A stretch of DNA of 64,000 nt from an uncultured Chloroflexia bacterium (GCA_963828165.1 CAWHDR010000001.1:864001-928000); one strand, 5' to 3'. Positions 1-35,615 are shown, counted from the stretch's first letter. The notes: generated from the sequence alone by a model not told the origin. Numbers and translations are program-made.

Positions 1-388
1 GGACGTTGAGGGACGTGCCCTCGCCGGTCGTGTCCTCGCCGGCGAAGAACCGCTGTTGGGCCGGGTCGACGAGGATCACGAACGCGCGAGCGAACGCGAA
101 GTACGCCGGGAAGCCCTCCTCGATCGGCAGCGTCGAGTTGGCCGTCTTGACCTCTTCGAGGGTCCCGATCGGCAGCTTGCCGCCGAAACCGCTGGCGAGG
201 TTCGGCCAGATGAACCCGAGCGTGCCCGCGCTGATCTCGAGCAGCCAGAGGGCGACGCCCGCTCCCAGCGAGCGGCGGATGAGCTGGCGGCGGGACAGGC
301 CCTGGACCTGCTGGTGGCGCAGCGACTTGAGCGCCTCCGAGGTCAGGGCGGCGGGCTTGTCGACGGCTTCGACGTGGTAGTTGCTCAT
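1..388 (-). CDS. Rieske iron-sulfur subunit of Rieske/cytb complex, N-terminal part (runs off window)
   Basis: Manual translation MSNYHVEAV...GLSRRQLIRRSLGAGVALWLLEISAGTLGFIWP: twin-arginine signal/anchor directly downstream of cytochrome b subunits. The Rieske CxH motifs lie outside the window. Confidence 0.75.
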   Translation of the reverse strand, partial: MSNYHVEAVDKPAALTSEALKSLRHQQVQGLSRRQLIRRSLGAGVALWLLEISAGTLGFIWPNLASGFGGKLPIGTLEEVKTANSTLPIEEGFPAYFAFARAFVILVDPAQQRFFAGEDTTGEGTSLNV

Positions 389-408
389 GCGCGCTCAGCG
401 ATCCTCGG

Positions 409-1011
409 TCACAGGGAGAAGTACATGCCGGGGGCGGTCACGTACGGGATGACGAAGGTGTAGCCCGGCCCTCGGAAGAAGATCCCGACGAACGTCAGGA
501 CCAGGCCCAGGATGCAGAAGAGCGTGAACAGGATCACGGCCGTCTTCCGCTGCGACGGGCGGGTCACCAGGATGTTGCCGCGATCGATGTACGGGATGAA
601 CCCGGCACCAACGAGCACGAAGGTGGGCACCAGCACCCCGGCGACCGTTGGATGGAAGTAGGCCAGCAGTTCCTGGAGACCCAGGAAATACCACGGAGCC
701 TTCGCGACGGCCGGCGTGACATTGCCGTTGGCCAGCTCCTCGAGCGGGGCGTTGATGAACAGGCCCATCAGCAGCAGGAAGATGCTCATGACGCCGGCGG
801 CGAGGAACTCGATCGACAGCAGATGCGGCCAGGTCATGACCGTGTCGTCCGGTTCCTTCTGGACGCGGACGACGGCGTCCTGCTTGACCAGTGCCAGCAA
901 CCGATACGGCCGCGCCGACATCGGCACGCGCTGCTTGTCGATCTCCGTCCGCCGGGTGGGGTCGACCGGAAGGACGACGCGCTTGTCGGGCGGGGACTTC
1001 ACATCAGACAT
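409..1011 (-). CDS. petD: cytochrome b C-terminal subunit (subunit IV/PetD-like)
   Basis: WPHLL...TPAVAKAPWYFLGLQELL (Qo-site PEWY equivalent); three hydrophobic helices; follows cytochrome b6. Confidence 0.85.
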   Translation of the reverse strand: MSDVKSPPDKRVVLPVDPTRRTEIDKQRVPMSARPYRLLALVKQDAVVRVQKEPDDTVMTWPHLLSIEFLAAGVMSIFLLLMGLFINAPLEELANGNVTPAVAKAPWYFLGLQELLAYFHPTVAGVLVPTFVLVGAGFIPYIDRGNILVTRPSQRKTAVILFTLFCILGLVLTFVGIFFRGPGYTFVIPYVTAPGMYFSL

Positions 1012-1042
1012 GACACGAAACCCTCGGGGCCGATAGGGCCGT

Positions 1043-1130
1043 CAGATGCAAGGCGGAGCTGAGCACCGGAGCGAGCGCACTCGAGGTGCGTGAGCGAGGA
1101 GCGCAGGCGACAACGACGCAGATGGCGGTC
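1043..1130. repeat. imperfect palindromic REP/MITE-like intergenic element
   Basis: CAGATG at 1043 and 1119 flank a central CGCAC-TCGAG-GTGCG hairpin; lies between petB stop and petD start. Confidence 0.4.
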
Positions 1131-1857
1131 ATAGCGGCCCCGAGATCCCTCCGTCCTTTCTGATACGCCAGAAATGGACGGCCAGGAAGATGGCTGCAAC
1201 GAGTGGCAAGACCATGATGTGGAGCACGTAGAAGCGGAGGAGCGTGTTCTGGCCGACCTCCACGCCACCGAGCAGGATGCGCGACACCGGCGTGTTGAAC
1301 AGTGGCGCGTAGCCGCCCATGTTCGTGCCGATCGTGATGGCCCAGTAAGCGATCTGGTCCCACGGCAGCAGGTAGCCGGTGAAGCTCAACATGATGGTCA
1401 GGAAGAGCAGCACCACCCCGACCACCCAGTTGAACTCGCGCGGTGGCTTGTAGGCGCCGTGATAGAAGACCCGCATCATGTGCAGGAACACGAAGAAGAC
1501 CATCAGGTGGGCGCCCCACCGGTGGATGTTGCGGGTCAACAGGCCGAACGTGACCTGGCTCTGGATGTCGAGGATGTTCGTGTACGCGAGCGTCGCGCTC
1601 GGCACGTAGAAGAACATCAGGTACACGCCGGTGATGGTCAGCACCAGGAACAGGAAGAACGACAGTCCGCCCAGGCAGAACGTGTAGGCGAACTTGACCG
1701 CGTGCTGCCGAACGCGCACCGGGTGGATGTGCAGGAACACGTTGTTCATGACCGCGTACGCGCGCGACCGCTCGTCCCGCGGGTACGGCTGCCGGAACAG
1801 CGAGCGCCAGGCCCCGCTGCGGCGGATGGTGTGGTCCATCCGCTCGAGGAAACTCAC
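1129..1857 (-). CDS. petB: cytochrome b6-type N-terminal subunit
   Basis: FCLGG (heme ci CxGG motif), RNIHRWGAH..HMMRVF, FTGYLLPWDQIAYWA, RFYVLH..HF heme ligands. Confidence 0.92.
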   Translation of the reverse strand: MSFLERMDHTIRRSGAWRSLFRQPYPRDERSRAYAVMNNVFLHIHPVRVRQHAVKFAYTFCLGGLSFFLFLVLTITGVYLMFFYVPSATLAYTNILDIQSQVTFGLLTRNIHRWGAHLMVFFVFLHMMRVFYHGAYKPPREFNWVVGVVLLFLTIMLSFTGYLLPWDQIAYWAITIGTNMGGYAPLFNTPVSRILLGGVEVGQNTLLRFYVLHIMVLPLVAAIFLAVHFWRIRKDGGISGPL

Positions 1858-3689
1858 CGGGCTCCTCCTGCGACGCCGGGCGTGCCGGCGAGTTGCGCGT
1901 CACGGTAGGACTCCTTGTAGAGCCGACCGTCTGTCGAGATCTCCTGCAGTTCGAACCGCTCCATCGTAATGGCGTCGAACGGGCAACGCTTGACACACAG
2001 GGCGCAGCGGATGCAGCGCTCCTCGTCCAGGATCATCGCGCCGCCATTCTCCCAGCCGTATGCCTCCTCGAGCTCGGGCAGGAGACCCTCCGACTTGAGC
2101 GTGTTGATGTCCACCATGTGGATGACGCCCTCGGGGCAGACGTCGGCACAGGCGCCGCACAGCACGCAGCGGAACGGGTCGAACCAGATGTTGTAGTTGC
2201 ACATCAGGCAGCGCGTCGATTCGGCGACGGCGCCGTTCGCGTCGTAGCCAAGCTCGACCGGGGTGTTGAAGTTGACGACCGGGTCGGTCGACGGCATGCG
2301 CACGTCGAGCGAGACCATCGGGATGTGCTGGCGCGGGAGCACGTCGTAGAACTCGGGCATGTCGTGGCGCCAGGAGCTCGTGACCTTGACGTTGGCCGCG
2401 ACCGACACGTCGGTCCGTCCGGCGAGATAGCGATCGATGGCGTAGGCCGCCTTCTTGCCATGGCCGGCCGCCTCGATGAGCGTCGTCGGTCCGGTCACGA
2501 AGTCGCCGCAGGCGAACACCCCCTTGACGTTCGACGCGTAGGTCGCGGGGTCTACCTTGACCCGGCCGCGATTGATCTCGAAGCGCGCCTCGACCGGCAG
2601 GAAGGTCAGGTCGGCGGCCTGCGACACCGCCGGGATGACGGTCTGGGCCGGGACGATGAATTCGGATCCCTCGATCGGCACCGGCGAGCGGCGGCCCGAC
2701 GCATCCGGCTCGCCGAGGCGGTTGCGGATGAACTTGACGGCGCTGACCTTGCCGTCCTCGCCGAGGATCTCGATGGGGCTCGCGAGGAACTCCATCCGGA
2801 CGCCCTCGCGCTCGGTCTCGCCCAGCTCCTCCTCGTCGACCACGAGCTCGGAGCGGGTCCGGCGATAGGCGATCGTGACGTTCTCCGCACCATGACGAAG
2901 GCTCGTGCGCGAGCAGTCCATGGCCGTATACCCGCCGCCGATCACGACGACGTCATTGCCGACCTCGAGCGGCTGCCCCAGGTTCGCCTTCTTCATGAAG
3001 TCGACGCCGTAGTCGACGCCCTCGAGCTCCGCGCCCGGGATGTCGAGCGCGACCGCGTCCATGGCGCCGGCCGTGATCGCGATGGCGTCGTACTCGGCCT
3101 GGAGCTGCTCGAACGTGATGTCCTTGCCGATCGTCGTGTCGTACACGAACGTCACGCCGAGGCGTTCGACGAGTCGGACGTCCATCTCGATCGCCTCGCG
3201 CGGCAGGCGGAAGGCCGGCACGCCGATGAGCATCGTCCCGCCGCCGTAGGGCAGGCTGTCGAAGACCGTGCACTGGTAGCCCTTCATCGCGAGCTCGCGC
3301 GCGACTGCGATCCCGGCCGGACCGGCGCCGACGATGGCGACGCGTTCGGCGCGGGGTGCGATCTGGGGCATGACGTCGGGGATGCCGGATGCCTCGTGCC
3401 ATTCCACGAGGAAGCGCTTCATCGCGCGGATGGCCAGCGGACGGTCGATGTCGCCGCGCCGGCAGGCTCGCTCGCACGGAGCCGAGCAGACATAGGAGCA
3501 CATCGCCGCGACCGGGTTCGGCTCGCGCGACAGGATGTAGCCCTCCTCGAACCGCCCTTCGGCAGCGAGGTTCAGGTAGCCGCGGCAGTTGGTCCCGACC
3601 GGACACGCTTCCTGGCACTCGATGTTGCATTGCAACCAGGAGGCGTCGACAGGCTGGACGAGGAATTCCTGGGCGGGGTCGATGGCCAA
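1854..3689 (-). CDS. GltD/NfnB/SudA-like FAD-dependent NAD(P)H oxidoreductase with C-terminal 2x[4Fe-4S] ferredoxin domain
   Basis: CQEACP and CSYVCSAPCERAC N-terminal clusters; GAGPAG; GGGYTAMD..YRR; RCLMC; CVLCGACADVCP and CIRCALCVKRCP. TTG start at 3689 with GGGAAAGG upstream; stop overlaps petB start. Confidence 0.9.
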   Translation of the reverse strand: MAIDPAQEFLVQPVDASWLQCNIECQEACPVGTNCRGYLNLAAEGRFEEGYILSREPNPVAAMCSYVCSAPCERACRRGDIDRPLAIRAMKRFLVEWHEASGIPDVMPQIAPRAERVAIVGAGPAGIAVARELAMKGYQCTVFDSLPYGGGTMLIGVPAFRLPREAIEMDVRLVERLGVTFVYDTTIGKDITFEQLQAEYDAIAITAGAMDAVALDIPGAELEGVDYGVDFMKKANLGQPLEVGNDVVVIGGGYTAMDCSRTSLRHGAENVTIAYRRTRSELVVDEEELGETEREGVRMEFLASPIEILGEDGKVSAVKFIRNRLGEPDASGRRSPVPIEGSEFIVPAQTVIPAVSQAADLTFLPVEARFEINRGRVKVDPATYASNVKGVFACGDFVTGPTTLIEAAGHGKKAAYAIDRYLAGRTDVSVAANVKVTSSWRHDMPEFYDVLPRQHIPMVSLDVRMPSTDPVVNFNTPVELGYDANGAVAESTRCLMCNYNIWFDPFRCVLCGACADVCPEGVIHMVDINTLKSEGLLPELEEAYGWENGGAMILDEERCIRCALCVKRCPFDAITMERFELQEISTDGRLYKESYRDAQLAGTPGVAGGAR

Positions 3690-3940
3690 GCGGGGACGTG
3701 CCTTTCCCTGGTTTGGTCGGAATGAAGGCGTCAGCGGCGGATCGGCCGTTCGCCGACCTCGCCAATCTACCATCCGCCTCGTGCGGGCTGCAAAGCACCC
3801 GGGTTTCCGGACCGACCCTGCGGCGTCGGATCGGCAGGTTCGGGTACGGTTGACGCTGGCTGCCCTCGCAGCTACGCTGCCCTGCGGAAAGCCGCGTGCG
3901 CTCGAGCACTCGAGAGCGACCGGAGGGAGATGCGGGGACC

Positions 3941-5620
3941 GTGACCGCAAGCGAGTTCGTGTTCCTGGCGCTTGGACTGGTCCTGGGCGTTGCCGCCGGC
4001 GCGGCGCTGGTCGAGATCCTGCGCGCCCGACCCCACGCTTCGCGTGAAGTCCGGGTCACGGTCGCCCCGGACTCGGTTCCGAGACGTCGATCCTCCACCC
4101 TCGCCGACGACGCATTCGCCGGGATCCAGCCCTCCGAACCGGCTCGCGGCGGCCCCGCGGACCGGCGCGGCGATGCCGTCAGCGTGGGCCCTGGGCGCAC
4201 GGAACGTCGAACACCTGTTCGCTCAGACGTGGCGGCCGCCTCAGCCGCGACCGACGGTGTCGGCGAGGGCCGAGTCGCGCCGATGCCAGCACCACGTCCC
4301 CTGCCGATCTCCGGTGGAGCCGACCCGACCCTGACTGCCATCCGCGCGACGGCGATGAGCGCGGCGGCCGCCCAGGGGCGGCAGACCACCACGGCGCTTC
4401 TTGACGCGCCGACCGGCAGCGCCGACGACGCGGCCTCCTCCGCGCCGTCGGCGCCGTCGGCGCCGTCCGTCCCCGCGCCACCGGACGCCAGCCCGAGCGC
4501 AAACGGTCCATGTGCCGAGCCGCGCCGGCTCGCGGACGAACGGTGTGAGCTCGCAATCCGCGCGCGTCAGCAGGCCGGTGTCGCCGACGAGATCCACCGC
4601 TCAGCGCAACGCGCTTACGACCAGCATGAGGCCGCGGCCGAGGCGGCCGCGGCGGCCGCGGACCCGCGCGCGGTGCGGCGGGCGAAGGACGATGCCCAAG
4701 CGCGGTTCCGGAATGGACGAGCAGGCGCGATGACCAGCGAATCCGTGGAGGCGGCCGCACGGGCGTGGCTGCTGGAGATCAACGCGATCAACGGGGACGC
4801 CCGCGAGGCAACGGCGACCCTGAACCGCGAGCGCGAGGCGGCGGCCGCCATCGCCCTGAACCTGGAGCGGCTCGCCGTCGAGGCCGATGCGGCCCGGATC
4901 GCCGCCGAAACGGCCGAATCCGTCTGTCTCACGGCGCGTGAAACGCTGGCCGCGTGCGAGGAGGCCGAGGCCGCCGGCGTGAAGGGCCATCTGCCGGCCG
5001 TCCCATCGCAGGGGCCCTCAGACGGCGGGTCGGTCGACGACGAACCGCTTGCGGCGGCACTCCATGGAGGGAGCGACCCCCGCATCTTCCGGCTGCTGCG
5101 CGGAGACCGAACCTCGTTGACCGAGGTCGTGACGGCGTTGGGCGGCGAGAGCCCCGACGAGCGCCGTCACTGGCAGGCCGCCATCGTGGACCTCATCGAT
5201 GCGATCCTCGCTGACAGCATCGCCGCGGGATCGCTGGAGTTCCCGATCGACCACCCGTTCTGGGGCACGTTCACGCTCGAGCAGGACCGCGAGATCGCCG
5301 CGGCGCTGTCCTCGCTCGGCTTCAAGTTCGACGGGTTCGGCGGATGGGTCGATGACCGGGTCCCGTCGCAACGGGACCTGTCGCTGTCGCTGGGCTACGC
5401 GGGCCTGGACCCGATGCGGATCCGCCAGTGGCCGACGGAAGTCGAGATGACCGAGCTCGTCAAGGACGTTCGGGTCGCGGCTGCCGAGCACCTGGTCGGG
5501 TCGGCAGCCGACCTGACGCTCGGTGAGCTCGTGACCATGCTCGGCCGGCGGGCCGACGGTCTCGCCGAGGTCTGGAACCACTGGGGCCGGATCCGGCCGC
5601 TGCTCCTCGACGAGTCCTAG
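3941..5620 (+). CDS. hypothetical membrane-anchored coiled-coil protein
   Basis: GTG after GGAGGGAG; N-terminal TM helix, Ala/Glu/Arg-rich helical middle, globular C-terminus. Confidence 0.7.
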   Translation: MTASEFVFLALGLVLGVAAGAALVEILRARPHASREVRVTVAPDSVPRRRSSTLADDAFAGIQPSEPARGGPADRRGDAVSVGPGRTERRTPVRSDVAAASAATDGVGEGRVAPMPAPRPLPISGGADPTLTAIRATAMSAAAAQGRQTTTALLDAPTGSADDAASSAPSAPSAPSVPAPPDASPSANGPCAEPRRLADERCELAIRARQQAGVADEIHRSAQRAYDQHEAAAEAAAAAADPRAVRRAKDDAQARFRNGRAGAMTSESVEAAARAWLLEINAINGDAREATATLNREREAAAAIALNLERLAVEADAARIAAETAESVCLTARETLAACEEAEAAGVKGHLPAVPSQGPSDGGSVDDEPLAAALHGGSDPRIFRLLRGDRTSLTEVVTALGGESPDERRHWQAAIVDLIDAILADSIAAGSLEFPIDHPFWGTFTLEQDREIAAALSSLGFKFDGFGGWVDDRVPSQRDLSLSLGYAGLDPMRIRQWPTEVEMTELVKDVRVAAAEHLVGSAADLTLGELVTMLGRRADGLAEVWNHWGRIRPLLLDES

Positions 5621-6393
5621 GCGCTCGCCAGGGGTCGGCCCCGGACGCGCGACACGATGAGCTCAGGCACGGTCGGCGCCTCCCCGTCGACCGCCCTGGC
5701 GGGGAAATCGAAGACCCCGATGAACAGCTGCAGCGGGTAATCCGGCGCCTGCCCCAGCTGCCGGACCACGCGGCCGTCGATCGTGAACGCCACCGAACCC
5801 GGGCGCCAGTCGACCCCGTACGTATGAAACGCGGCGACGTCCACGTCGAACCGCTCGGCGGCCCACTCCTCGCGCAGAGCGGGGTCCCGGAACTGATGGA
5901 CGCCCATGCCGACTTCGACCGAGCCGTCCCGCACGGACGCGCCGAAGATCTCGGCCACGCAGATCTCGCCGGAGCGCTCGGGGCGGTCCTCGATCCCGCT
6001 CATCCAGAACGCCACCATCGAGCGGCTCGTCACGACGCCTCGCATCCGGACCTCGATCTGACCGTACAGCGGTGTGTAGCCCCACATCGGCGGCTGCTCT
6101 TCACGGACCAGCAGCCCCGTGCGGAACGGCAGCGGCCCGATGGCCGAGCCGGCCGGACCGGACCAGTTCGCGCTCTGGATGCATGAGACCCGCAGCGGCT
6201 CCTCGTGCAGGTCGGCGCACCAGAGCGGCTGATCGGCCGGGATCGACAGGTGCAGCTCGCCACCGCGAACGGCGTAGGAAGCGACTGCCTCGGCGCGCGA
6301 GCTCCAATGCGGGAGGTAGTACGGGGACCACACCCCGAGGTCGAGGTCGTCACCCGGGAAACGCTCGTCGAGATCGGCGCGGTCGGCAGGCAC
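5617..6393 (-). CDS. glycoside hydrolase family 16-like protein
   Basis: YGQIEVRM, AFWM, GEICVAEIFG, FHTYGVDW..VAFTIDG. Confidence 0.8.
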   Translation of the reverse strand: MPADRADLDERFPGDDLDLGVWSPYYLPHWSSRAEAVASYAVRGGELHLSIPADQPLWCADLHEEPLRVSCIQSANWSGPAGSAIGPLPFRTGLLVREEQPPMWGYTPLYGQIEVRMRGVVTSRSMVAFWMSGIEDRPERSGEICVAEIFGASVRDGSVEVGMGVHQFRDPALREEWAAERFDVDVAAFHTYGVDWRPGSVAFTIDGRVVRQLGQAPDYPLQLFIGVFDFPARAVDGEAPTVPELIVSRVRGRPLASA

Positions 6394-6399
6394 GCCTGA

Positions 6400-7191
6400 C
6401 TACTCCGGTTCGGCCGCCGGGTCGGTGTCCGCCTGGACGCTCGGGCCCTCGTCCTCGTCGTCGTCGATGACGATCGCGCGCAGGGATTCGGCGGCCACGA
6501 CGCCGATCGCCGCGCCTTCCTCCGCCGCCCAGGCGCGAACGCGTTTCTCCAACCCTTCGGGATCGCGGATCTGGCTGCGGTGCTCGGCCAGCGCAGCGAG
6601 CTTGCGATCGAGTGTCGTGCCGATATCGACCCACGCGTTGGCATGGTTCGACCAGAACAGGTACAGCCGGCGCACGACGTGCGCGGCCAGACCCGATCGT
6701 GCCAACGAGGGGAAGGCCATCGGGTTGCGTGCGGCCGGGTAGACGGCGTCGACGGCCGCCAGACCGGCCGCCCGGTGGTCCGTGTGGTTGACGCCACCAT
6801 CGCCGTGGAACAACGTCTCGGGATCGGTGGCGAGCACGGCATCGGGGCGGAACGTGCGGATCTCCCGGACCAGGAGCTCGCGGAGGGCGAGGTCGTTGGC
6901 GAGGGCGCCATCGGGCTGGTGCAGGAAGCTGACGCCCGCATACCCGGTCACGGCGGCCGCGGATCGTTGCTCGATCTCGCGGAGCGCGGCAAGCTCGAGC
7001 GGATCGGCGTCCGGATCCTCGCCACCCTGGTCGCCGCTCGTGCAGCACACCAGCCAGCCCACCGACCCCTCGTCGATCCAGCGAGCGGCTGTGCCGGACG
7101 GCCCGAACTCGGCGTCGTCGGGATGCGCGGCGATGAGCATGAACCGGGACGGGCGCCAGACATGGTCGGTGCGGGGCTCGGGCGTGGTCAC
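6400..7191 (-). CDS. PIG-L/LmbE family deacetylase
   Basis: AHPDDAE, TSGDQG, NHTDH, HRSQ motifs. Confidence 0.9.
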   Translation of the reverse strand: MTTPEPRTDHVWRPSRFMLIAAHPDDAEFGPSGTAARWIDEGSVGWLVCCTSGDQGGEDPDADPLELAALREIEQRSAAAVTGYAGVSFLHQPDGALANDLALRELLVREIRTFRPDAVLATDPETLFHGDGGVNHTDHRAAGLAAVDAVYPAARNPMAFPSLARSGLAAHVVRRLYLFWSNHANAWVDIGTTLDRKLAALAEHRSQIRDPEGLEKRVRAWAAEEGAAIGVVAAESLRAIVIDDDEDEGPSVQADTDPAAEPE

Positions 7192-7265
7192 GGCGGGCAG
7201 CGGCCCGTCGCCACGGCGTGAGATTCGCGTTGCGATGGCCTGACCCTCGGCGTACTGTTCCAGCC

Positions 7266-7301
7266 GAGGCTTCGCTCGTCTCCCCCCACGAGCGAAGCCT
7301 C
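7266..7301. terminator. perfect 14-bp stem-loop between bcp and PIG-L gene
   Basis: GAGGCTTCGCTCGT / ACGAGCGAAGCCTC with 8-nt loop; no U-tail. Confidence 0.5.
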
Positions 7302-7327
7302 ACGTCGCGCTTCGGGGGGTCGCCGGG

Positions 7328-7810
7328 TCATGCCGCCGGTGTCTGGAGCTCGTCGAGCGCGGTGAGGACCTGGGCGGCGTGGCCTTCTGCCTTGACCTTC
7401 GGCCAGACGCGCGCGATCCGGCCCTCGGGATCGATCAGGAACGTGGCGCGGGCCGTTCCCCAGTACGTCTTCCCATAGTTGTGCTTCTCGACCCACGTGC
7501 CGTACGTGTCCGCGACCGCATGGTCCTCGTCCGCGAGCAACGTGAACGGAAGCCCGAACTTCTCGCTGAACGCGCGCTTGCTGGCCACGCCCTGGGGGCT
7601 GACGCCCCACACGTCGGCGCCGCGCTCAGCGATGGTCTCGTTCGCGTCGCGAAACTCGCAGGCCTCGATGGTGCAGCCCGTCGTGTCGTCCGTCGGGTAG
7701 AAGTACAGGATGGTCCAACGTCCGCGCTGATCCGCGAGCTCATGGATGGTGCCCGTGGCATCGGGCAGGGCGAACGACGGGGCCGCGTCGCCGACCTTTG
7801 GCTGCTCCAT
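7328..7810 (-). CDS. bcp: thioredoxin-dependent thiol peroxidase (Bcp/PrxQ)
   Basis: LYFYP..TTGCTIEACEFRD, RATFLID. Confidence 0.93.
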   Translation of the reverse strand: MEQPKVGDAAPSFALPDATGTIHELADQRGRWTILYFYPTDDTTGCTIEACEFRDANETIAERGADVWGVSPQGVASKRAFSEKFGLPFTLLADEDHAVADTYGTWVEKHNYGKTYWGTARATFLIDPEGRIARVWPKVKAEGHAAQVLTALDELQTPAA

Positions 7811-7812
7811 GT

Positions 7813-8493
7813 TCAGAGCGTAGCAGGGGTCTCGATGACGAGGAGCTGGCCGCGACGCAGGTCGACGGCGGCGTCGGGCGAGTCGCGGACGTTCGAGAGG
7901 CCGCGCGTCCGGCCCGCCAGGAGCGGCTCGTCATCCAGGCGGTAGGCGAGGCCGTGCGTGGTGATCCCGACCGCATCGGCACCGAGCGGCAAGAGCGACA
8001 CGAGATCGCCGACGCGACCGGCCAGATCGAGGCGCGCGGGCCCGCCGTCGGGACCCGGTGCGAGCAACCGCCGGACGCGGGCGTCGACGGCCAGGAGGTG
8101 CACGCCGAGGGGCTCGAGCTCGGGCATCGACAGCAGCCCCAGGTTGGCCAGCGCGTGATCTACGCGCGGCCCTCCGAGCGCGCCGAGCACGGTGAGCTGG
8201 GATGCGCCCATCGCGCGCGCGGCGAGCACCGCAAGCTCAGTGTCGGATTCGTCCTTGTCCGGCCGCGCACGCTCGACCGGCACGCCGGCCGCTGCAAGGG
8301 CTTCGATGCCGGGCTCGCCGAGCGAGTCCCCATCTCCGACCCAGCGGTCGATGGAGAGCCCGAGTGGCTCGGCATGACGCGCGCCACCGTCCGCCGCGAC
8401 GACTCGCGCCCCGGGCTCCAGCCAGCCCGGCCACGCCGCGTCGAGGGCGGCTCGCGGTCCCACCTGCCCATCGGCAAGGACGATCACCTGCAT
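7813..8493 (-). CDS. thiN: thiamine diphosphokinase
   Basis: AADGGA, GDGDS, DKDESDTELA, GGPRVDHALAN, GLSN. Confidence 0.92.
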   Translation of the reverse strand: MQVIVLADGQVGPRAALDAAWPGWLEPGARVVAADGGARHAEPLGLSIDRWVGDGDSLGEPGIEALAAAGVPVERARPDKDESDTELAVLAARAMGASQLTVLGALGGPRVDHALANLGLLSMPELEPLGVHLLAVDARVRRLLAPGPDGGPARLDLAGRVGDLVSLLPLGADAVGITTHGLAYRLDDEPLLAGRTRGLSNVRDSPDAAVDLRRGQLLVIETPATL

Positions 8494-32013: not shown

Positions 32014-32548
32014 GTGGGCGCGCTCGAGTCCGGCAGCGTTGCACCTGCCGCTCGAGCGCGCCGGACGCCCCGGGATGAACGTGCGCGCCGAGCCTCCGTG
32101 CTCGGCGCGTATCCGTACTGGTTCTATCTACCCGCCGCCATCATCTTCGGGATCATCTTCGTAGTCCCGACGGTCCTGGCGTTCTACTACAGCCTGACTC
32201 GATGGACCCTGTTCGATGCCGAGTTCATCGGCCTCGACAACTTCGCCCTGTTCTTCCGTGAACCAGCTTTGACTAGCGGCCTGCGCAACACCATCGTCTA
32301 CGCCGTCGTGACGAGTGGGCTCAAGGTCGTCCTGGGGCTGCTCCTGGCCGCCCTCCTGACCTCGAGCATGCGACTCCGGAACCTGCTCCGGTCGATCATC
32401 TTCTTTCCCGTGCTGGTGAGCACCGTGGCTGTCGGCATCACCTTTGCAGTGCTGCTGCACCCGTCCGACGGCCTGATCAACATCGCGCTCGAGCAGGTCG
32501 GCATCGACGGGCCGCAGTGGCTTGGCGACCCGGACCTCGCGCTGCTAG
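32014..32548 (+). pseudogene. 3'-truncated carbohydrate ABC permease
   Basis: YWFYLPA, FIGLDNF, RSIIFFP, QWLGDP, then similarity ends before the EAA loop. Confidence 0.75.
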
Positions 32549-32682
32549 CGCACCCGAACCGCAACCCCCGGGCTGTCGCAACCTTCCGTGCGCTCGCGGT
32601 ATCCTGTCAGCCGACCCCAAGCGTCCCCCGCGGGCCTCCCCAGGCGTCCGCGGTCCGTCATCCCACGAATCAGGTGGTGCCC

Positions 32683-33852
32683 ATGAAGGTCGGTGTCGCC
32701 AAGGAGACCGCGCCCGGAGAGCGGCGCGTCGCCCTGGTACCCGAAGCGCTCGGCAAGCTACAGGCGGCCGGGCTCGAGGTCCTCGTCGAAACCGGCGCCG
32801 GCACCGGCGCCGCCATCCCCGACAGCGCATACACGGACGCAGGCGCGACCGTCGTCCCGACCGACGCCCTGTACCAGCAGGCAGACGTCGTTCTGCGGGT
32901 TGCCAAGCCATCGGCGGCGGAGGTCAAGCAGTTGCGCAAGGGCCAGGCGGTCGTGGGCTTCCTCGCTCCGCTCATCGACCCGGCCACCGCGAAGGCGCTC
33001 GCGGAGCAGGGCGTGACCGCCATCAGCCTGGACGCGATTCCCCGCACTCTGTCCCGGGCGCAGACCATGGACGCCCTCAGCTCCCAGGCGAACGTCGGCG
33101 GCTACAAGGCGGTCCTCATCGCAGCCAACGCGTACGGCCGCTACTTCCCGCTGCTGACGACCGCCGCCGGTACGGCCAAGCCGGCCAACGTGCTGATCTT
33201 GGGGATCGGCGTGGCCGGCCTCCAGGCCATCGGGACGGCCAGGAGACTCGGCGCCGTCGTCAAGGCCTACGACGTCCGGCCAGAAACACGGGAGCAGGCC
33301 GAGAGCCTGGGCGCCCAGTTCGTGAAGCTCAAGACGACCATCGACGCCACCGGCACCGGAGGCTACGCCCGCGAACTGAGCGCCGAGGAGCGCGGAGCCC
33401 AGCAGGCCGAGCTGAACGAGGTCATCGGCACGATGGACATCGTGATCACGACCGCCCAGGTGCCGGGCCGCAAGCCGCCGGTCCTCGTCACGGCCGACGC
33501 AGTGGCCCGGATGAAGCCGGGCTCGGTCATCGTGGATATGGCCGCATCCGAGCTCGGTGGCAACTGTGAGCTGTCGAAGGCCGGCGAGACCGTCGAGACA
33601 CCCAACGCAGTCTCCATCATCGCCCCCGACAACCTGCCCGCCTCGATGCCGGCGGGGGCGTCCGCGTTCTACGCACGGAACATCTCGGCGCTGCTGCTCG
33701 GGATGGTCAAGGACGGCAACCTGAGCCTGGACTTCGAGGATGAGGTGACCAAGGCGACCGTCATCACCCAGGACGGCGCGGTCGTGTCCGACGCCGTGAA
33801 GAAGCTGCTCGAGCCCGCCCCGGCCGCCGCAGCCAGCGGAGGCCAGGCATGA
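32683..33852 (+). CDS. pntA: NAD(P) transhydrogenase subunit alpha, domain I
   Basis: MKVGVAKE..ERRVALVP, RAQTMDALSSQ, GIGVAGLQA. Confidence 0.95.
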   Translation: MKVGVAKETAPGERRVALVPEALGKLQAAGLEVLVETGAGTGAAIPDSAYTDAGATVVPTDALYQQADVVLRVAKPSAAEVKQLRKGQAVVGFLAPLIDPATAKALAEQGVTAISLDAIPRTLSRAQTMDALSSQANVGGYKAVLIAANAYGRYFPLLTTAAGTAKPANVLILGIGVAGLQAIGTARRLGAVVKAYDVRPETREQAESLGAQFVKLKTTIDATGTGGYARELSAEERGAQQAELNEVIGTMDIVITTAQVPGRKPPVLVTADAVARMKPGSVIVDMAASELGGNCELSKAGETVETPNAVSIIAPDNLPASMPAGASAFYARNISALLLGMVKDGNLSLDFEDEVTKATVITQDGAVVSDAVKKLLEPAPAAAASGGQA

Positions 33853-34181
33853 CCCCCGAAGAGATCGATGGCCTGATCCAGGCCCTCACCGTCTTCACGC
33901 TCGCGATCCTCGTCGGGATCGCGGTGATCAGCAAGGTCCCAGCGACCCTGCACACGCCGTTGATGTCGGGTGCCAACTCCATCCACGGGATCGTCCTGGT
34001 CGGGGCGATGCTCATCGCGCTCGAGGCAACCGAGCCGGTCAGCCAGCTGCTGTCGCTGGTGGCCGTGGCCTTCGCGACGATGAACGTCGTGGGCGGCTAT
34101 GTCGTGACCGATCGGATGCTCCAGATGTTCCGCAAGAGGCCGACCGCGCCCGTGGCGCCGGCGCCCGAGTCCGAGGCCTAG
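33849..34181 (+). CDS. NAD(P) transhydrogenase subunit alpha part 2 (membrane)
   Basis: LHTPLMSGANSIHG, NVVGGYVVTDRML. Confidence 0.95.
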   Translation: MTPEEIDGLIQALTVFTLAILVGIAVISKVPATLHTPLMSGANSIHGIVLVGAMLIALEATEPVSQLLSLVAVAFATMNVVGGYVVTDRMLQMFRKRPTAPVAPAPESEA

Positions 34182-34184
34182 CCC

Positions 34185-35615
34185 GTGACCACGCTCGAGA
34201 TCGTCGAGATCCTGGTCCGGATCGCGTGGCTCCTGGGAGCCGTGGCGTTCGTCATCGGCCTGTCGCGGATGAACTCGCCGGCGACGGCTCGCAACGGCAA
34301 TCTCGTGTCGGCTGCGGGGATGACGCTGGCCATCGTGGCGACGGCCGTCCTCATCCTCACGCGGCAGCTGTCCGAGGAGGGCGTCTCCGCCGTCGTCTGG
34401 GTGATCATCGTGCTCGGCATCGTGCTCGGTGGCGGTCTCGGGCTGTATACGGCCCGGACCGTGAAGATGACCGCGATGCCCCAGCTGGTGTCATTGTTCA
34501 ACGCGGTCGGCGGCGGGGCGGCGGCGCTCATCGCGATCGACGACTACCTGCGCCTCGTCGGCGGCGAAGCCGTGCGCATCGACCTCCACATCTTCATCGT
34601 CCTCGACATCATCATCGGCTCGATCACGTTCACCGGCTCGATCATCGCGTCGGGCAAGCTCCAGGGCCTGATCCCGGGCAAGCCGATCATCGTGCCGGGC
34701 GGCCAGCTCGTGACCCTCGCGCTCGCCGGGATCACGCTGATCGCCTCAATGTTCCTGTTCATCACCGGCACGCCGAATCTCGCGCTGATGCTGGTCATCC
34801 TGGCCGCGGCCCTGGTCTTCGGCGTGACGATGACGCTCCCGATCGGCGGCGCGGACATGCCCGTCGTCATCTCGTTGCTGAACTCGTTCACCGGCACGGC
34901 CGTCGCGATGGCGGGCTTCGTGATCAACAACCCGGTCCTGATCATCGCGGGTGCCCTCGTCGGGGCGTCCGGCGCGATCCTGACCAAGCTCATGGCGGAC
35001 GCGATGAATCGGTCGGTCATGAACATCATGATCGGCGGGTTCGGTGGCGGCGACGATGCGACCGGTGCCGCCGATGGGCCCGGCGGGTCCGTGCGATCGA
35101 TCGGGGCGGACGACGTCGCGATCCAGCTGGCCTACGCCCAGCACGTCATCGTGGTCCCGGGCTACGGGCTTGCGGTCGCCCAGGCACAGCACGCGGTGCG
35201 CGAGCTCGCCGAGCTCCTCGAGGAGCGGGGTGTCGACGTCAAGTACGCCATCCATCCCGTGGCGGGCCGGATGCCGGGACACATGAACGTGCTCCTCGCC
35301 GAGGCCAACGTCCCCTATCCGCAGCTCAAGGAGATGGAGGACATCAACCCGGAGTTCGCGCGGGCCGACGTGGCGCTCGTCATCGGGGCCAATGACGTCA
35401 CGAACCCGGCAGCTCGACGGCCCGGCTCGCCCGTGTCCGGCATGCCCATCCTCGACGTCGACCAGGCGAAGTCGATCGTGGTGATCAAGCGCTCGATGGG
35501 CAAGGGCTACGCCGGCATCGACAACGAGCTGTACACGAACGAGAAGACCGGCATGCTGTTTGCCGACGCAAAGGACGGCCTGGCGGCGCTGACCGCGGCG
35601 GTCAAGGCGCTCTAG
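34185..35615 (+). CDS. pntB: NAD(P) transhydrogenase subunit beta
   Basis: MTAMPQLV, IGGADMPVVISLLNS, HPVAGRMPGHMNVLLAEA. Confidence 0.96.
   Translation: MTTLEIVEILVRIAWLLGAVAFVIGLSRMNSPATARNGNLVSAAGMTLAIVATAVLILTRQLSEEGVSAVVWVIIVLGIVLGGGLGLYTARTVKMTAMPQLVSLFNAVGGGAAALIAIDDYLRLVGGEAVRIDLHIFIVLDIIIGSITFTGSIIASGKLQGLIPGKPIIVPGGQLVTLALAGITLIASMFLFITGTPNLALMLVILAAALVFGVTMTLPIGGADMPVVISLLNSFTGTAVAMAGFVINNPVLIIAGALVGASGAILTKLMADAMNRSVMNIMIGGFGGGDDATGAADGPGGSVRSIGADDVAIQLAYAQHVIVVPGYGLAVAQAQHAVRELAELLEERGVDVKYAIHPVAGRMPGHMNVLLAEANVPYPQLKEMEDINPEFARADVALVIGANDVTNPAARRPGSPVSGMPILDVDQAKSIVVIKRSMGKGYAGIDNELYTNEKTGMLFADAKDGLAALTAAVKAL

Follow-up and report, generated by a model that had tools for sequence, protein, structure and literature searches.

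Why should an operon for a Rieske/cytochrome b6 complex begin with an NADP(H)-type flavoprotein related to GltD and NfnB? What Rieske/cytochrome b complexes associated with an NAD(P) oxidoreductase do has been in question ever since anammox bacteria were seen to carry them. In anammox bacteria, which are hard to grow, three of these complexes coexist. Here we analyze a stretch of 64,000 nucleotides (the window) from a Chloroflexota bacterium of soil or fresh water, as yet uncultured, that belongs to the class Limnocylindria and whose genome is 87.7 % complete. In this host the module takes its simplest form, with the sole intact cytochrome b found, one haem c, one blue copper and a single oxidase. 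We propose, at a probability of roughly one half, that these genes specify a Rieske/cytochrome b6 complex that oxidises quinol and bears the flavoprotein as a subunit, with net electron flow likely running from NADPH to quinone.

Gene calls on the window place four genes of the operon on the minus strand. These and the associated features are:

1854-3689, minus strand: GltD/NfnB-like NADP(H)/FAD Fe-S flavoprotein, 611 aa (Pfam, NCBIfam, solved relatives, motifs)
1129-1857, minus strand: four-helix cytochrome b6, 242 aa (PF00033, 4.6e-47)
409-1011, minus strand: subunit IV, 200 aa (PF00032, 1.6e-07)
1-388, minus strand: Rieske protein, codons 1-129 of 224 in the window, running from 388 to 2 (PF00355)
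1854-1868, minus strand: translational-coupling junction of flavoprotein and cytochrome b6, read directly from the sequence
1012-1128: 117-nt spacer separating the cytochrome b6 and subunit IV genes, containing one copy of a short repeat dispersed in the genome (core about 55 nt)
3690-3895: divergent intergenic region 5′ of the flavoprotein gene, between its TTG start at 3689 and a divergent ORF at 3896-5620

A first, sequence-only reading had described a four-gene operon in which the flavoprotein and cytochrome b genes overlap; the genes and the overlap stand, but the operon extends past the window. The window edge truncates the Rieske gene ahead of its cluster boxes, and the complete gene, encoding 224 aa, lies at G000:C1:863714-864388 (locus L003 11714-12388). 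A cytochrome c-cupredoxin fusion gene comes next in the operon, then a Kelch-repeat membrane protein. At the junction, cytochrome b6 starts with GTG (1857-1855) and the flavoprotein ends with TGA (1856-1854); the two codons form an overlapping GTGA, with TG common to both, and an internal Shine-Dalgarno sequence, GGAGGA, precedes the GTG at 1868-1863. Within one family (f1), the matched stretches of the two proteins are separated by a 0-nt gap in 22 genomes. The repeat in the next spacer has five more partial copies elsewhere in the genome (86-93 % identity), and the same spacer measures only 17 nt in a second locus (L013). The TTG start of the flavoprotein has GGAAAGG 11 nt upstream, and the promoter presumably lies within 3690-3895, where a consensus scan found no promoter-like site.

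The flavoprotein has the commonest length, 611 aa, among the 120 homologue matches listed (86-98 % identity). Pfam assigns it Fer4_20, Pyr_redox_2 and two Fer4 domains, and no membrane domain. Its cysteines lie at 21/25/29/35, 64/68/72/76, 494/497, 508/511/514/518 and 559/562/565/569, eight of them in the N-terminal Fe-S domain, and its motifs include GAGPAG (121-126), GGGYTA (251-256) and YRR (275-277). In a 20-row clade alignment the C-terminal extension, about 426-611, holds an invariant RC494xxC497 and two CxxCxxCxxxCP motifs. The arginine pair of the YRR motif would bind the 2′-phosphate of NADPH. Here YRRT matches the same motif in all five of the solved NfnB/NfnL/NfnA/Stn chains among the matches listed, as expected from the NADP-type YRR noted in the sequence-only reading; that reading's extra 2x[4Fe-4S] domain likewise agrees with the two Fer4 domains and the paired cysteine motifs, which would bind two clusters. 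By Pfam and structural alignment the protein has the features of the GltD/NfnB family, namely Fer4_20, two dinucleotide folds and the NADPH-type arginine pair, while GltD, GltA and all named NCBIfam equivalog models fall below cut-off. A paralogue within the same genome scores 2.1e-90. Solved relatives of the flavoprotein include NfnA (9n5u_A, 3e-108) and NfnB (4ylf_B, 4.9e-87). With NfnB/NfnL, NfnA/StnC and GltD the flavoprotein has in common the N-terminal Fe-S domain, the FAD and NADPH folds and YRRT, and NfnA (9n5u_A, residues 20-567) and StnC (8oh5_C, 21-569) also cover most of the C-terminal extension. What differs is the partner: a membrane cytochrome b complex here, whereas gene calls and profile matches reveal no GltB, NfnA/NfnS or NfnBC partner gene in the operon or its flanks.

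Cytochrome b6 carries the two haem-ligand pairs (bp and bn), with His112/126 14 residues apart and His213/228 15 apart, and all four histidines are invariant in an 18-row alignment. The CxGG haem ci site claimed earlier is present as the haem cn motif FC61LGG. Its cysteine, Cys61, is kept in all Limnocylindria rows, but of the 20 cytochromes b compared that are linked to the flavoprotein, 11 lack it, all from other phyla, and thus haem cn is not essential to flavoprotein association and drops out as a requirement for it. The best solved match is b6 of the b6f complex (6rqf_I, 1.7e-52), over residues 59-242 only, the N-terminal 58 residues being unaligned with plastid b6. Subunit IV has an N-terminal extension of roughly 60 residues, and its Qo motif is APWY, not PEWY, without the acidic residue before Trp (KAPWYFLGLQE); A103-K-A-P-W-Y-F109 is invariant in a 14-row alignment. 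The operon thus resembles that of chloroplast and cyanobacterial b6f in its His ligands, its CxGG motif and its separate subunit IV, and differs in having no cytochrome f and no small subunits, in containing a flavoprotein gene, and in residues 1-58 of b6 and the APWY of subunit IV. The Rieske protein shows CPHLGC and CPCHGSRY cluster boxes, with both potential-raising residues, Ser159 and Tyr161, present; an N-terminal SRRQLIRR marks it as a putative twin-arginine export substrate. In the exit protein, a membrane-anchored monohaem cytochrome c (CARCH) is joined to a cupredoxin domain with His310, Cys350, His353 and Met356.

The genome encodes one COX1, the single haem-copper oxidase, and one NuoH, and neither a second intact cytochrome b nor an NrfD-type alternative complex III was found in it; this setting speaks for the proposed complex. 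On the outer side, electrons would pass from the Rieske protein to the membrane-anchored haem c, its fused blue copper and the oxidase. At the cytoplasmic face we infer that the flavoprotein is an extra subunit through which NADP(H) would be connected with the haems of the n-side and the site of quinone reduction, with a proposed path made up of FAD, the two N-terminal Fe-S clusters and the two C-terminal [4Fe-4S] clusters. In this aerobe the net flow would most likely be downhill, from NADPH to the quinone-reduction site, which would make the flavoprotein a built-in NADPH:quinone entry port. Such a port would resemble the ferredoxin/FNR route that has been put forward for chloroplast b6f, and the external donor in Mitchell's first Q-cycle scheme. 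The sequence-only reading had also suggested that the complex works with the transhydrogenase of the window. Gene order lends this no support, since pntAA/AB/B lie at 32014-35615 on the opposite strand, about 28 kb and 27 gene calls from the operon. Nothing in the results speaks for the bifurcating or reverse-electron role that the same reading had inferred.

Dibrova et al. reportedly described, in 2013, a cytochrome b "subfamily G" whose genes lie near those of Fe-S oxidoreductases that bind NAD(P). Passages of their 2017 paper (PMC5600118) state that short subfamily G cytochromes b co-occur with large cysteine-rich NAD(P)-binding proteins, with such gene proximity "in many other cases"; the cytochrome b6 studied here resembles the subfamily by that description rather than by tree placement. 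The evidence supports placing the operon among the described Rieske/cytochrome b complexes that include an Fe-S oxidoreductase binding NAD(P), as the sequence-only reading had suggested, in line with the excerpts of PMC12954380 and PMC5600118 that describe the anammox examples, Kuenenia Kuste4569-4574 and Kustd1480-1485. According to these excerpts, the anammox flavoprotein homologues are highly expressed along with cytochrome b (PMC5600118) and the NAD(P) oxidoreductase is modelled on the n-side (PMC12954380), both of which we count for the proposed complex. Common to these complexes, as there described, and the operon are a cytochrome b6 split from subunit IV, a Rieske protein that has a potential-raising serine, and, encoded in the operon, an NAD(P)/FAD protein of the cytoplasmic side that holds a series of Fe-S clusters; the likeness to the Kuste4570 and Kustd1483 flavoproteins is one of described architecture only. 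The outer-side partner differs, being one haem c fused to a cupredoxin here and multihaem and HAO-like octahaem cytochromes in anammox. The host differs too: an aerobe with a haem-copper oxidase, in which neither a second intact cytochrome b nor an alternative complex III turned up. What sets this case apart is a known type of complex with the sole intact cytochrome b found in an aerobe's genome, and an exit through haem c and blue copper; our literature search returned no description of the operon in Limnocylindria.

The same architecture was the basis of the Kartal model for anammox (PMC12954380, in the sections cited), in which electrons flow the other way and quinol drives NADP+ reduction. 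Quinol would be oxidised on the p-side, one electron entering the high-potential branch of Rieske protein, haem c, copper and oxidase, while the other, strongly reducing, would pass through the b haems, the Fe-S chain and FAD to form NADPH. The NADP-type YRRT suits this model. So do Ser159 and Tyr161: the two anammox Rieske proteins gave measured potentials of +303 and +335 mV, from which passages of PMC12954380 argue for a very low b-haem potential, and because they tie the CPCHGSRY pair to high potential and NADP+ reduction, the pair counts against our reading. The model needs a low-potential quinone, but no marker of the menaquinone pathway emerged in this 87.7 % complete genome: MqnA/D gave no match, and MenD and MenB matches lie below cut-off. 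These absences also count against our reading, as they leave its energetic argument incomplete. Complex I and PntAB are already available to balance NAD(P)H, and quinone reduction on the n-side would have to be prevented, a problem that PMC12954380 itself names as unsolved in the part cited. Moreover, in the closest solved relatives, the Bfu-type NfnABC (PMC11829005) and Stn (PMC10482914) transhydrogenases, the module mainly oxidises NADPH, as far as the cited portions of these papers go. These relatives are NADPH ports wired by Fe-S clusters, which counts for the entry port. We thus favour flow from NADPH to quinone and consider quinol-driven NADP+ reduction possible but unlikely.

The distribution of the flavoprotein bears on whether it belongs to the complex. 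The sequence-only reading had hinged on conservation of the flavoprotein beside petB in relatives, a condition that leaves it unrefuted: of the 130 Limnocylindria-class genomes with an orthologue-level flavoprotein match, 123 have cytochrome b6 as the next gene downstream, in the same orientation; in six of the remaining seven, the two genes are on separate contigs. Two genera (g4 with 9 genomes and g5 with 2, 91-95 % complete) lack both genes, their flavoprotein matches being paralogue-level only (2.6e-87 to 6.5e-99) and cytochrome b6 giving no match at E<=1e-20 in the 11 genomes. We count this adjacency and co-absence, together with the GTGA overlap, for the proposed complex. A flavoprotein profile fetched 79 loci, with cytochrome b6 in the flank of 20 (8 Limnocylindria, 10 Acidobacteriota, 1 Zixibacteria and 1 Nitrospinota) and absent from the flank of 59. 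Gene order in the linked operons varies from phylum to phylum, and those of Acidobacteriota, Zixibacteria and Nitrospinota have multihaem cytochrome partners. Phylogeny, one of the checks proposed at the outset, unites the linked copies: in both quick trees (84-row and 55-row), a single clade with SH-aLRT support of 99 holds all 22 linked flavoproteins and three lone copies from other Chloroflexota, separate from every non-cytochrome-linked homologue sampled. Linkage in other phyla with varied order, combined with a single flavoprotein clade, again argues for the complex. In the acidobacterial members YRR and the haem cn cysteine are both missing, which counts against a single mechanism; more than one may be at work across the clade.

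Among Chloroflexota outside Limnocylindria, a close cytochrome b6 (E<=1e-95) occurs in 50 genomes, which include every one of the 38 that carry a clade-like flavoprotein, a one-way dependence that also favours the complex. The other 12 of these 50 have no clade-like flavoprotein, and three families (f9, f19 and f28) have it in 0/13, 0/6 and 0/4 genomes at E<=1e-100; the complex thus works without the flavoprotein elsewhere, which counts against our reading. So does the occurrence of the flavoprotein apart from cytochrome b6 in all 38 genomes, with three sampled copies alone amid unrelated genes, since the homologue could be a free-standing enzyme. The flavoprotein might then be co-expressed but unattached, a soluble NADPH-dependent Fe-S reductase of ferredoxin, a thiol, a metal or another acceptor that tracks the complex. 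The missing Pfam membrane domain would fit, as would the same domain order in many contexts, including the 59 loci without a flanking cytochrome b. However, an unattached enzyme accounts poorly for the translational coupling, for the adjacency and joint absence within the class, for linkage in four phyla despite rearranged gene order and for the one clade containing every linked flavoprotein, and the anammox homologues are published as part of a complex in the passages cited from PMC5600118. We judge this alternative distinctly improbable.

Very little indeed speaks for the database names, which would make the flavoprotein a glutamate synthase small or formate dehydrogenase beta subunit and the cytochrome the ExtP of a selenite/tellurite reduction operon: homologues are labelled "formate dehydrogenase beta subunit" or "glutamate synthase beta subunit-like", and the cytochrome b narrowly passes the NCBIfam cut-off (294.9 bits vs 290) for ExtP of Geobacter ExtOPQ (Rieske, cytochrome b, membrane protein), but GltD, GltA and related models stay below cut-off, ExtQ reaches 54.3 bits vs 150, gene calls and matches in the operon and its flanks include no gene for GltB, NfnA or a molybdopterin protein, and none of the multihaem cytochromes, porin and rhodanese of the ext cluster, for which the cited part of PMC5877670 gives no flavoprotein, was called or matched beside the operon. 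Gene context contradicts the glutamate synthase, formate dehydrogenase and ExtP identities alike, and for annotation none of these names is supported.

The quinol-oxidising complex with an attached flavoprotein would matter beyond this host, as the module is nearly universal in the widespread class Limnocylindria and one flavoprotein clade spans at least four phyla, Acidobacteriota among them. We tentatively raise the possibility, less probable than the complex itself, that the flavoprotein-bearing form is the ordinary complex III of Limnocylindria and many Acidobacteriota, coupling respiration to the NADP(H) pool either from quinol to NADPH by Qo bifurcation or through a Q cycle whose second electron comes from NADPH. 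Acidobacteriota include cultured members, and if an isolate has the operon, attachment and electron direction become testable in an aerobe. If the possibility is true, this mode of respiration-linked NADPH metabolism would be new to textbook aerobes and no anammox speciality, and the lineages concerned would be whole aerobic groups abundant in soil and fresh water.

The Rieske/cytochrome b6 operon described by the sequence-only reading is confirmed: its four genes follow one another in the same orientation on the minus strand (window 1-3689). The window is G000:C1:864001-928000, within a genome assembly (G000) of 3.31 Mb, 69.6% G+C and an estimated completeness of 87.7%. Source names of near-identical proteins (Candidatus Limnocylindrales) and of related loci (Candidatus Limnocylindrus or Limnocylindria) place the organism in the class Limnocylindria of the Chloroflexota. 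Window features are given first, followed by two genes outside it in locus L003.

1854-3689, minus strand: flavoprotein, 611 aa; TTG start with GGAAAGG 11 nt upstream
1129-1857, minus strand: cytochrome b6; GTG start having two bases in common with the flavoprotein TGA stop, GGAGGA just upstream
409-1011, minus strand: subunit IV, preceded by a 117-nt spacer
start at 388, minus strand, exiting the window: Rieske protein, 224 aa from the genome sequence
32014-35615, plus strand: pntAA, pntAB and pntB, a three-gene proton-translocating transhydrogenase
G000:C1:862586-863677 (L003 10586-11677): cytochrome c-cupredoxin fusion, 363 aa; membrane helix, one haem c motif CARCH
G000:C1:861089-862537 (L003 9089-10537): Kelch-repeat protein after the cupredoxin fusion, 482 aa; terminal membrane helices

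The cupredoxin fusion has a type-1 copper site composed of His310, Cys350, His353 and Met356. The same six-gene order, including the cupredoxin fusion followed by the Kelch-repeat protein, recurs in three related loci (L012, L014, L015). The flavoprotein length of 611 aa is the most frequent among the 120 homologues listed, which share 86-98% identity. A consensus scan upstream of the operon returned no promoter-like site, and no convincing terminator was found. The 1012-1128 spacer, which separates cytochrome b6 from subunit IV, contains a short dispersed repeat with a core of about 55 nt, of which five more partial copies occur in G000 at 86-93% identity; the corresponding spacer of a related locus, L013, is only 17 nt long. 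An Ala/Arg-rich ORF of 574 codons (3896-5620), divergent from the operon, is predicted to have a membrane helix at its N terminus; no Pfam or NCBIfam family matched it.

Of the 30 bins into which window 1-4000 was divided, 27-28 are hit at 90% likeness or more by RNA contigs from four libraries of three studies (soil and ice); these contigs are short, derive from mixed relatives and may include DNA carry-over. Among the contigs listed none bridges the junction at 1857 when 31 letters are required on either side. No RNA run covers 3887-4000, and 3753-3886 is next to uncovered (depth 0.13 in one run); we read nothing into this gap.

The flavoprotein consists of Fer4_20, Pyr_redox_2 and double Fer4 domains (Pfam). 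Its closest solved relatives are the NfnA subunits of NfnABC-type enzymes (9n5u_A, 3e-108; 9bov_A), StnC (8oh5_C), NfnB (4ylf_B, 4.9e-87), NfnL (5jca_L) and GltD, and its NADPH-type YRRT aligns in all five alignments shown. Eight cysteines are found in the N-terminal part. NfnB ends at flavoprotein residue 425; the extension that follows has an invariant Arg493-Cys494-x2-Cys497 and two CxxCxxCxxxCP motifs. Judged from these motifs, the protein would hold four [4Fe-4S]-type clusters. In flavoproteins of family f4 of the class (loci L010, L016-L019), some 45 inserted residues follow the NADPH domain (alignment columns 441-485), so that the single stretch matched in protein searches covered residues 9-365 only. 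The only flavoprotein paralogue in G000 (G000:C1:1201539-1203008, 38% identity; within open frame 4105-7782 of locus L005) is part of a larger chimera in which the GltD module, and with it several more Fe-S motifs, comes after a NuoG-like 2Fe-2S N-terminus. The paralogue is situated some 2.4 kb downstream of a NuoH match.

Cytochrome b6 retains the four haem histidines and the CxGG cysteine, and its residues 1-58 have no counterpart in plastid b6. The subunit IV motif is APWY, whereas that of b6f is PEWY. The Rieske protein carries CPCHGSRY; the serine is kept in all 24 proteins examined, and the position two residues later is Tyr in 11 and Phe in 13. The pairing of a Rieske/cytochrome b complex with such a flavoprotein is already in print; PMC12954380 describes and models the two Kuenenia complexes. 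In those models, His43 of the Kuenenia cytochrome binds a new haem. Histidine is invariant at this position in our 18-row alignment; it is also present in 10/10 Chloroflexota cytochromes b from flavoprotein-free loci and families, and is therefore not diagnostic of flavoprotein docking. A second, lone cytochrome b6 copy in G000 (G000:C1:2523087-2523813; 7087-7816 of locus L004; 91-93% identity) falls into two frames, divided near codon 85-88, and adjoins no subunit IV or Rieske gene. This second copy is intact in several relatives (G089, G059, G140, G062), and both copies are split in another genome, G128; the splits may be frameshifts or assembly errors.

Conservation was surveyed by searching 150 other genomes of the class Limnocylindria with the flavoprotein and cytochrome b6 and comparing coordinates by script. 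Of the 130 class genomes in which the flavoprotein matched at orthologue level (G000 among them), 123 have cytochrome b6 directly downstream on the same strand, or 120/125 when seven unpublished records (G112, G067, G096, G123, G087, G091, G106) are excluded. Among the remaining seven, the two genes are on different contigs in six, and one has no cytochrome b6 row listed. Two genera, g4 and g5 (11 genomes, 91-95% complete), yielded neither an orthologue-level flavoprotein nor a cytochrome b6. In two further families of the class the same operon closes with mono- or dihaem cytochromes c that have no copper domain.

Outside the class, a close cytochrome b6 (E<=1e-95) was found in 50 of 268 sampled Chloroflexota genomes, 38 of which also have a clade-like flavoprotein, mostly full-length at 40-45% identity (48 and 36 if the unpublished G354 and G185 are excluded). 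A few of the 38 flavoproteins matched in part only, owing to contig ends or to divergence of the C-terminal half. The flavoprotein adjoins cytochrome b6 in none of these 38 genomes; the relatives are not independent, and the non-class counts are therefore descriptive, not a test. Three of the copies sampled stand alone amid unrelated neighbours, and one of the genomes concerned has an operon of cytochrome b6, subunit IV, Rieske and cupredoxin genes that lacks the flavoprotein.

A cross-phylum scan (one genome per species; profile from a 7-row alignment) returned 79 loci, 20 of them with cytochrome b6 in the flank. Eight of these linked loci are Limnocylindria; ten from Acidobacteriota and one from Zixibacteria are ordered flavoprotein, Rieske, cytochrome b, subunit IV, and in the single Nitrospinota locus the flavoprotein comes last. 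Multihaem cytochromes c are the partners in the operons of these three phyla. Nine of the 20 linked cytochromes b (Limnocylindria and Nitrospinota) retain the haem cn cysteine; Tyr takes its place in the ten Acidobacteriota, Gly in the row from Zixibacteria. The YRR motif of the flavoprotein is also absent in Acidobacteriota. In quick, unrooted maximum-likelihood trees (LG+G4; L015 and L072 left out, matching over fewer than 380 residues), a single group, apart from every other homologue, unites all 22 linked flavoproteins with the three lone Chloroflexota copies (SH-aLRT 99 with 84 rows and 99 with 55 rows).

The sequence-only reading had proposed a bifurcating or reverse-electron complex possibly working with the transhydrogenase of the window. 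That interpretation is partly supported: the linkage of flavoprotein and cytochrome b6 is conserved, and none of the results bears out bifurcation or reverse electron flow. The transhydrogenase link is rejected as unsupported, since in G000 the pnt genes are 28 kb distant and on the opposite strand. The pntAA frame, taken from its first possible start codon, has an N-terminal part of about 225 residues without a Pfam match. From the genomics presented here and printed accounts of the anammox homologues, we infer that the flavoprotein is attached to the complex. Complex prediction was run, without controls, on two copies of cytochrome b6, two of subunit IV truncated to residues 1-155, and the flavoprotein truncated to residues 426-611, with a separate alignment for each; it scored 0.18 and 0.16, the mark being 0.32. 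Our literature search found no description of the operon for Limnocylindria; the Dibrova supplements may list such genomes.

Electrons could run in either direction. Quinol-driven NADP+ reduction, as proposed for anammox, is kept alive by the Rieske signature, in which both residues that raise the potential according to PMC12954380 (Ser and Tyr) are present. Weighing it further would require the quinone type, which the genome does not reveal: in the 87.7% complete G000, MqnA/D gave no match and MenD and MenB only matches below cut-offs, so that neither known menaquinone pathway is evident. We favour the flow from NADPH to quinone, as this would be the downhill direction, as the organism has other means of making NADPH, and as the module of the solved relatives is reported to take electrons from NADPH (NfnABC, PMC11829005; Stn, PMC10482914).

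G000 has one haem-copper oxidase subunit I and one NuoH. Searching this 87.7% complete genome gave no NrfD-type protein and hence no alternative complex III, and the only cytochrome b genes in it are the operon copy and the lone frameshifted one. The operon thus encodes the sole quinol:cytochrome c (or copper) oxidoreductase recognisable in G000. Gene content, cofactor motifs, coupling, conservation and joint absence are consistent with its product being a respiratory Rieske/cytochrome b6 complex, which would have an NADP(H) port on its cytoplasmic face.
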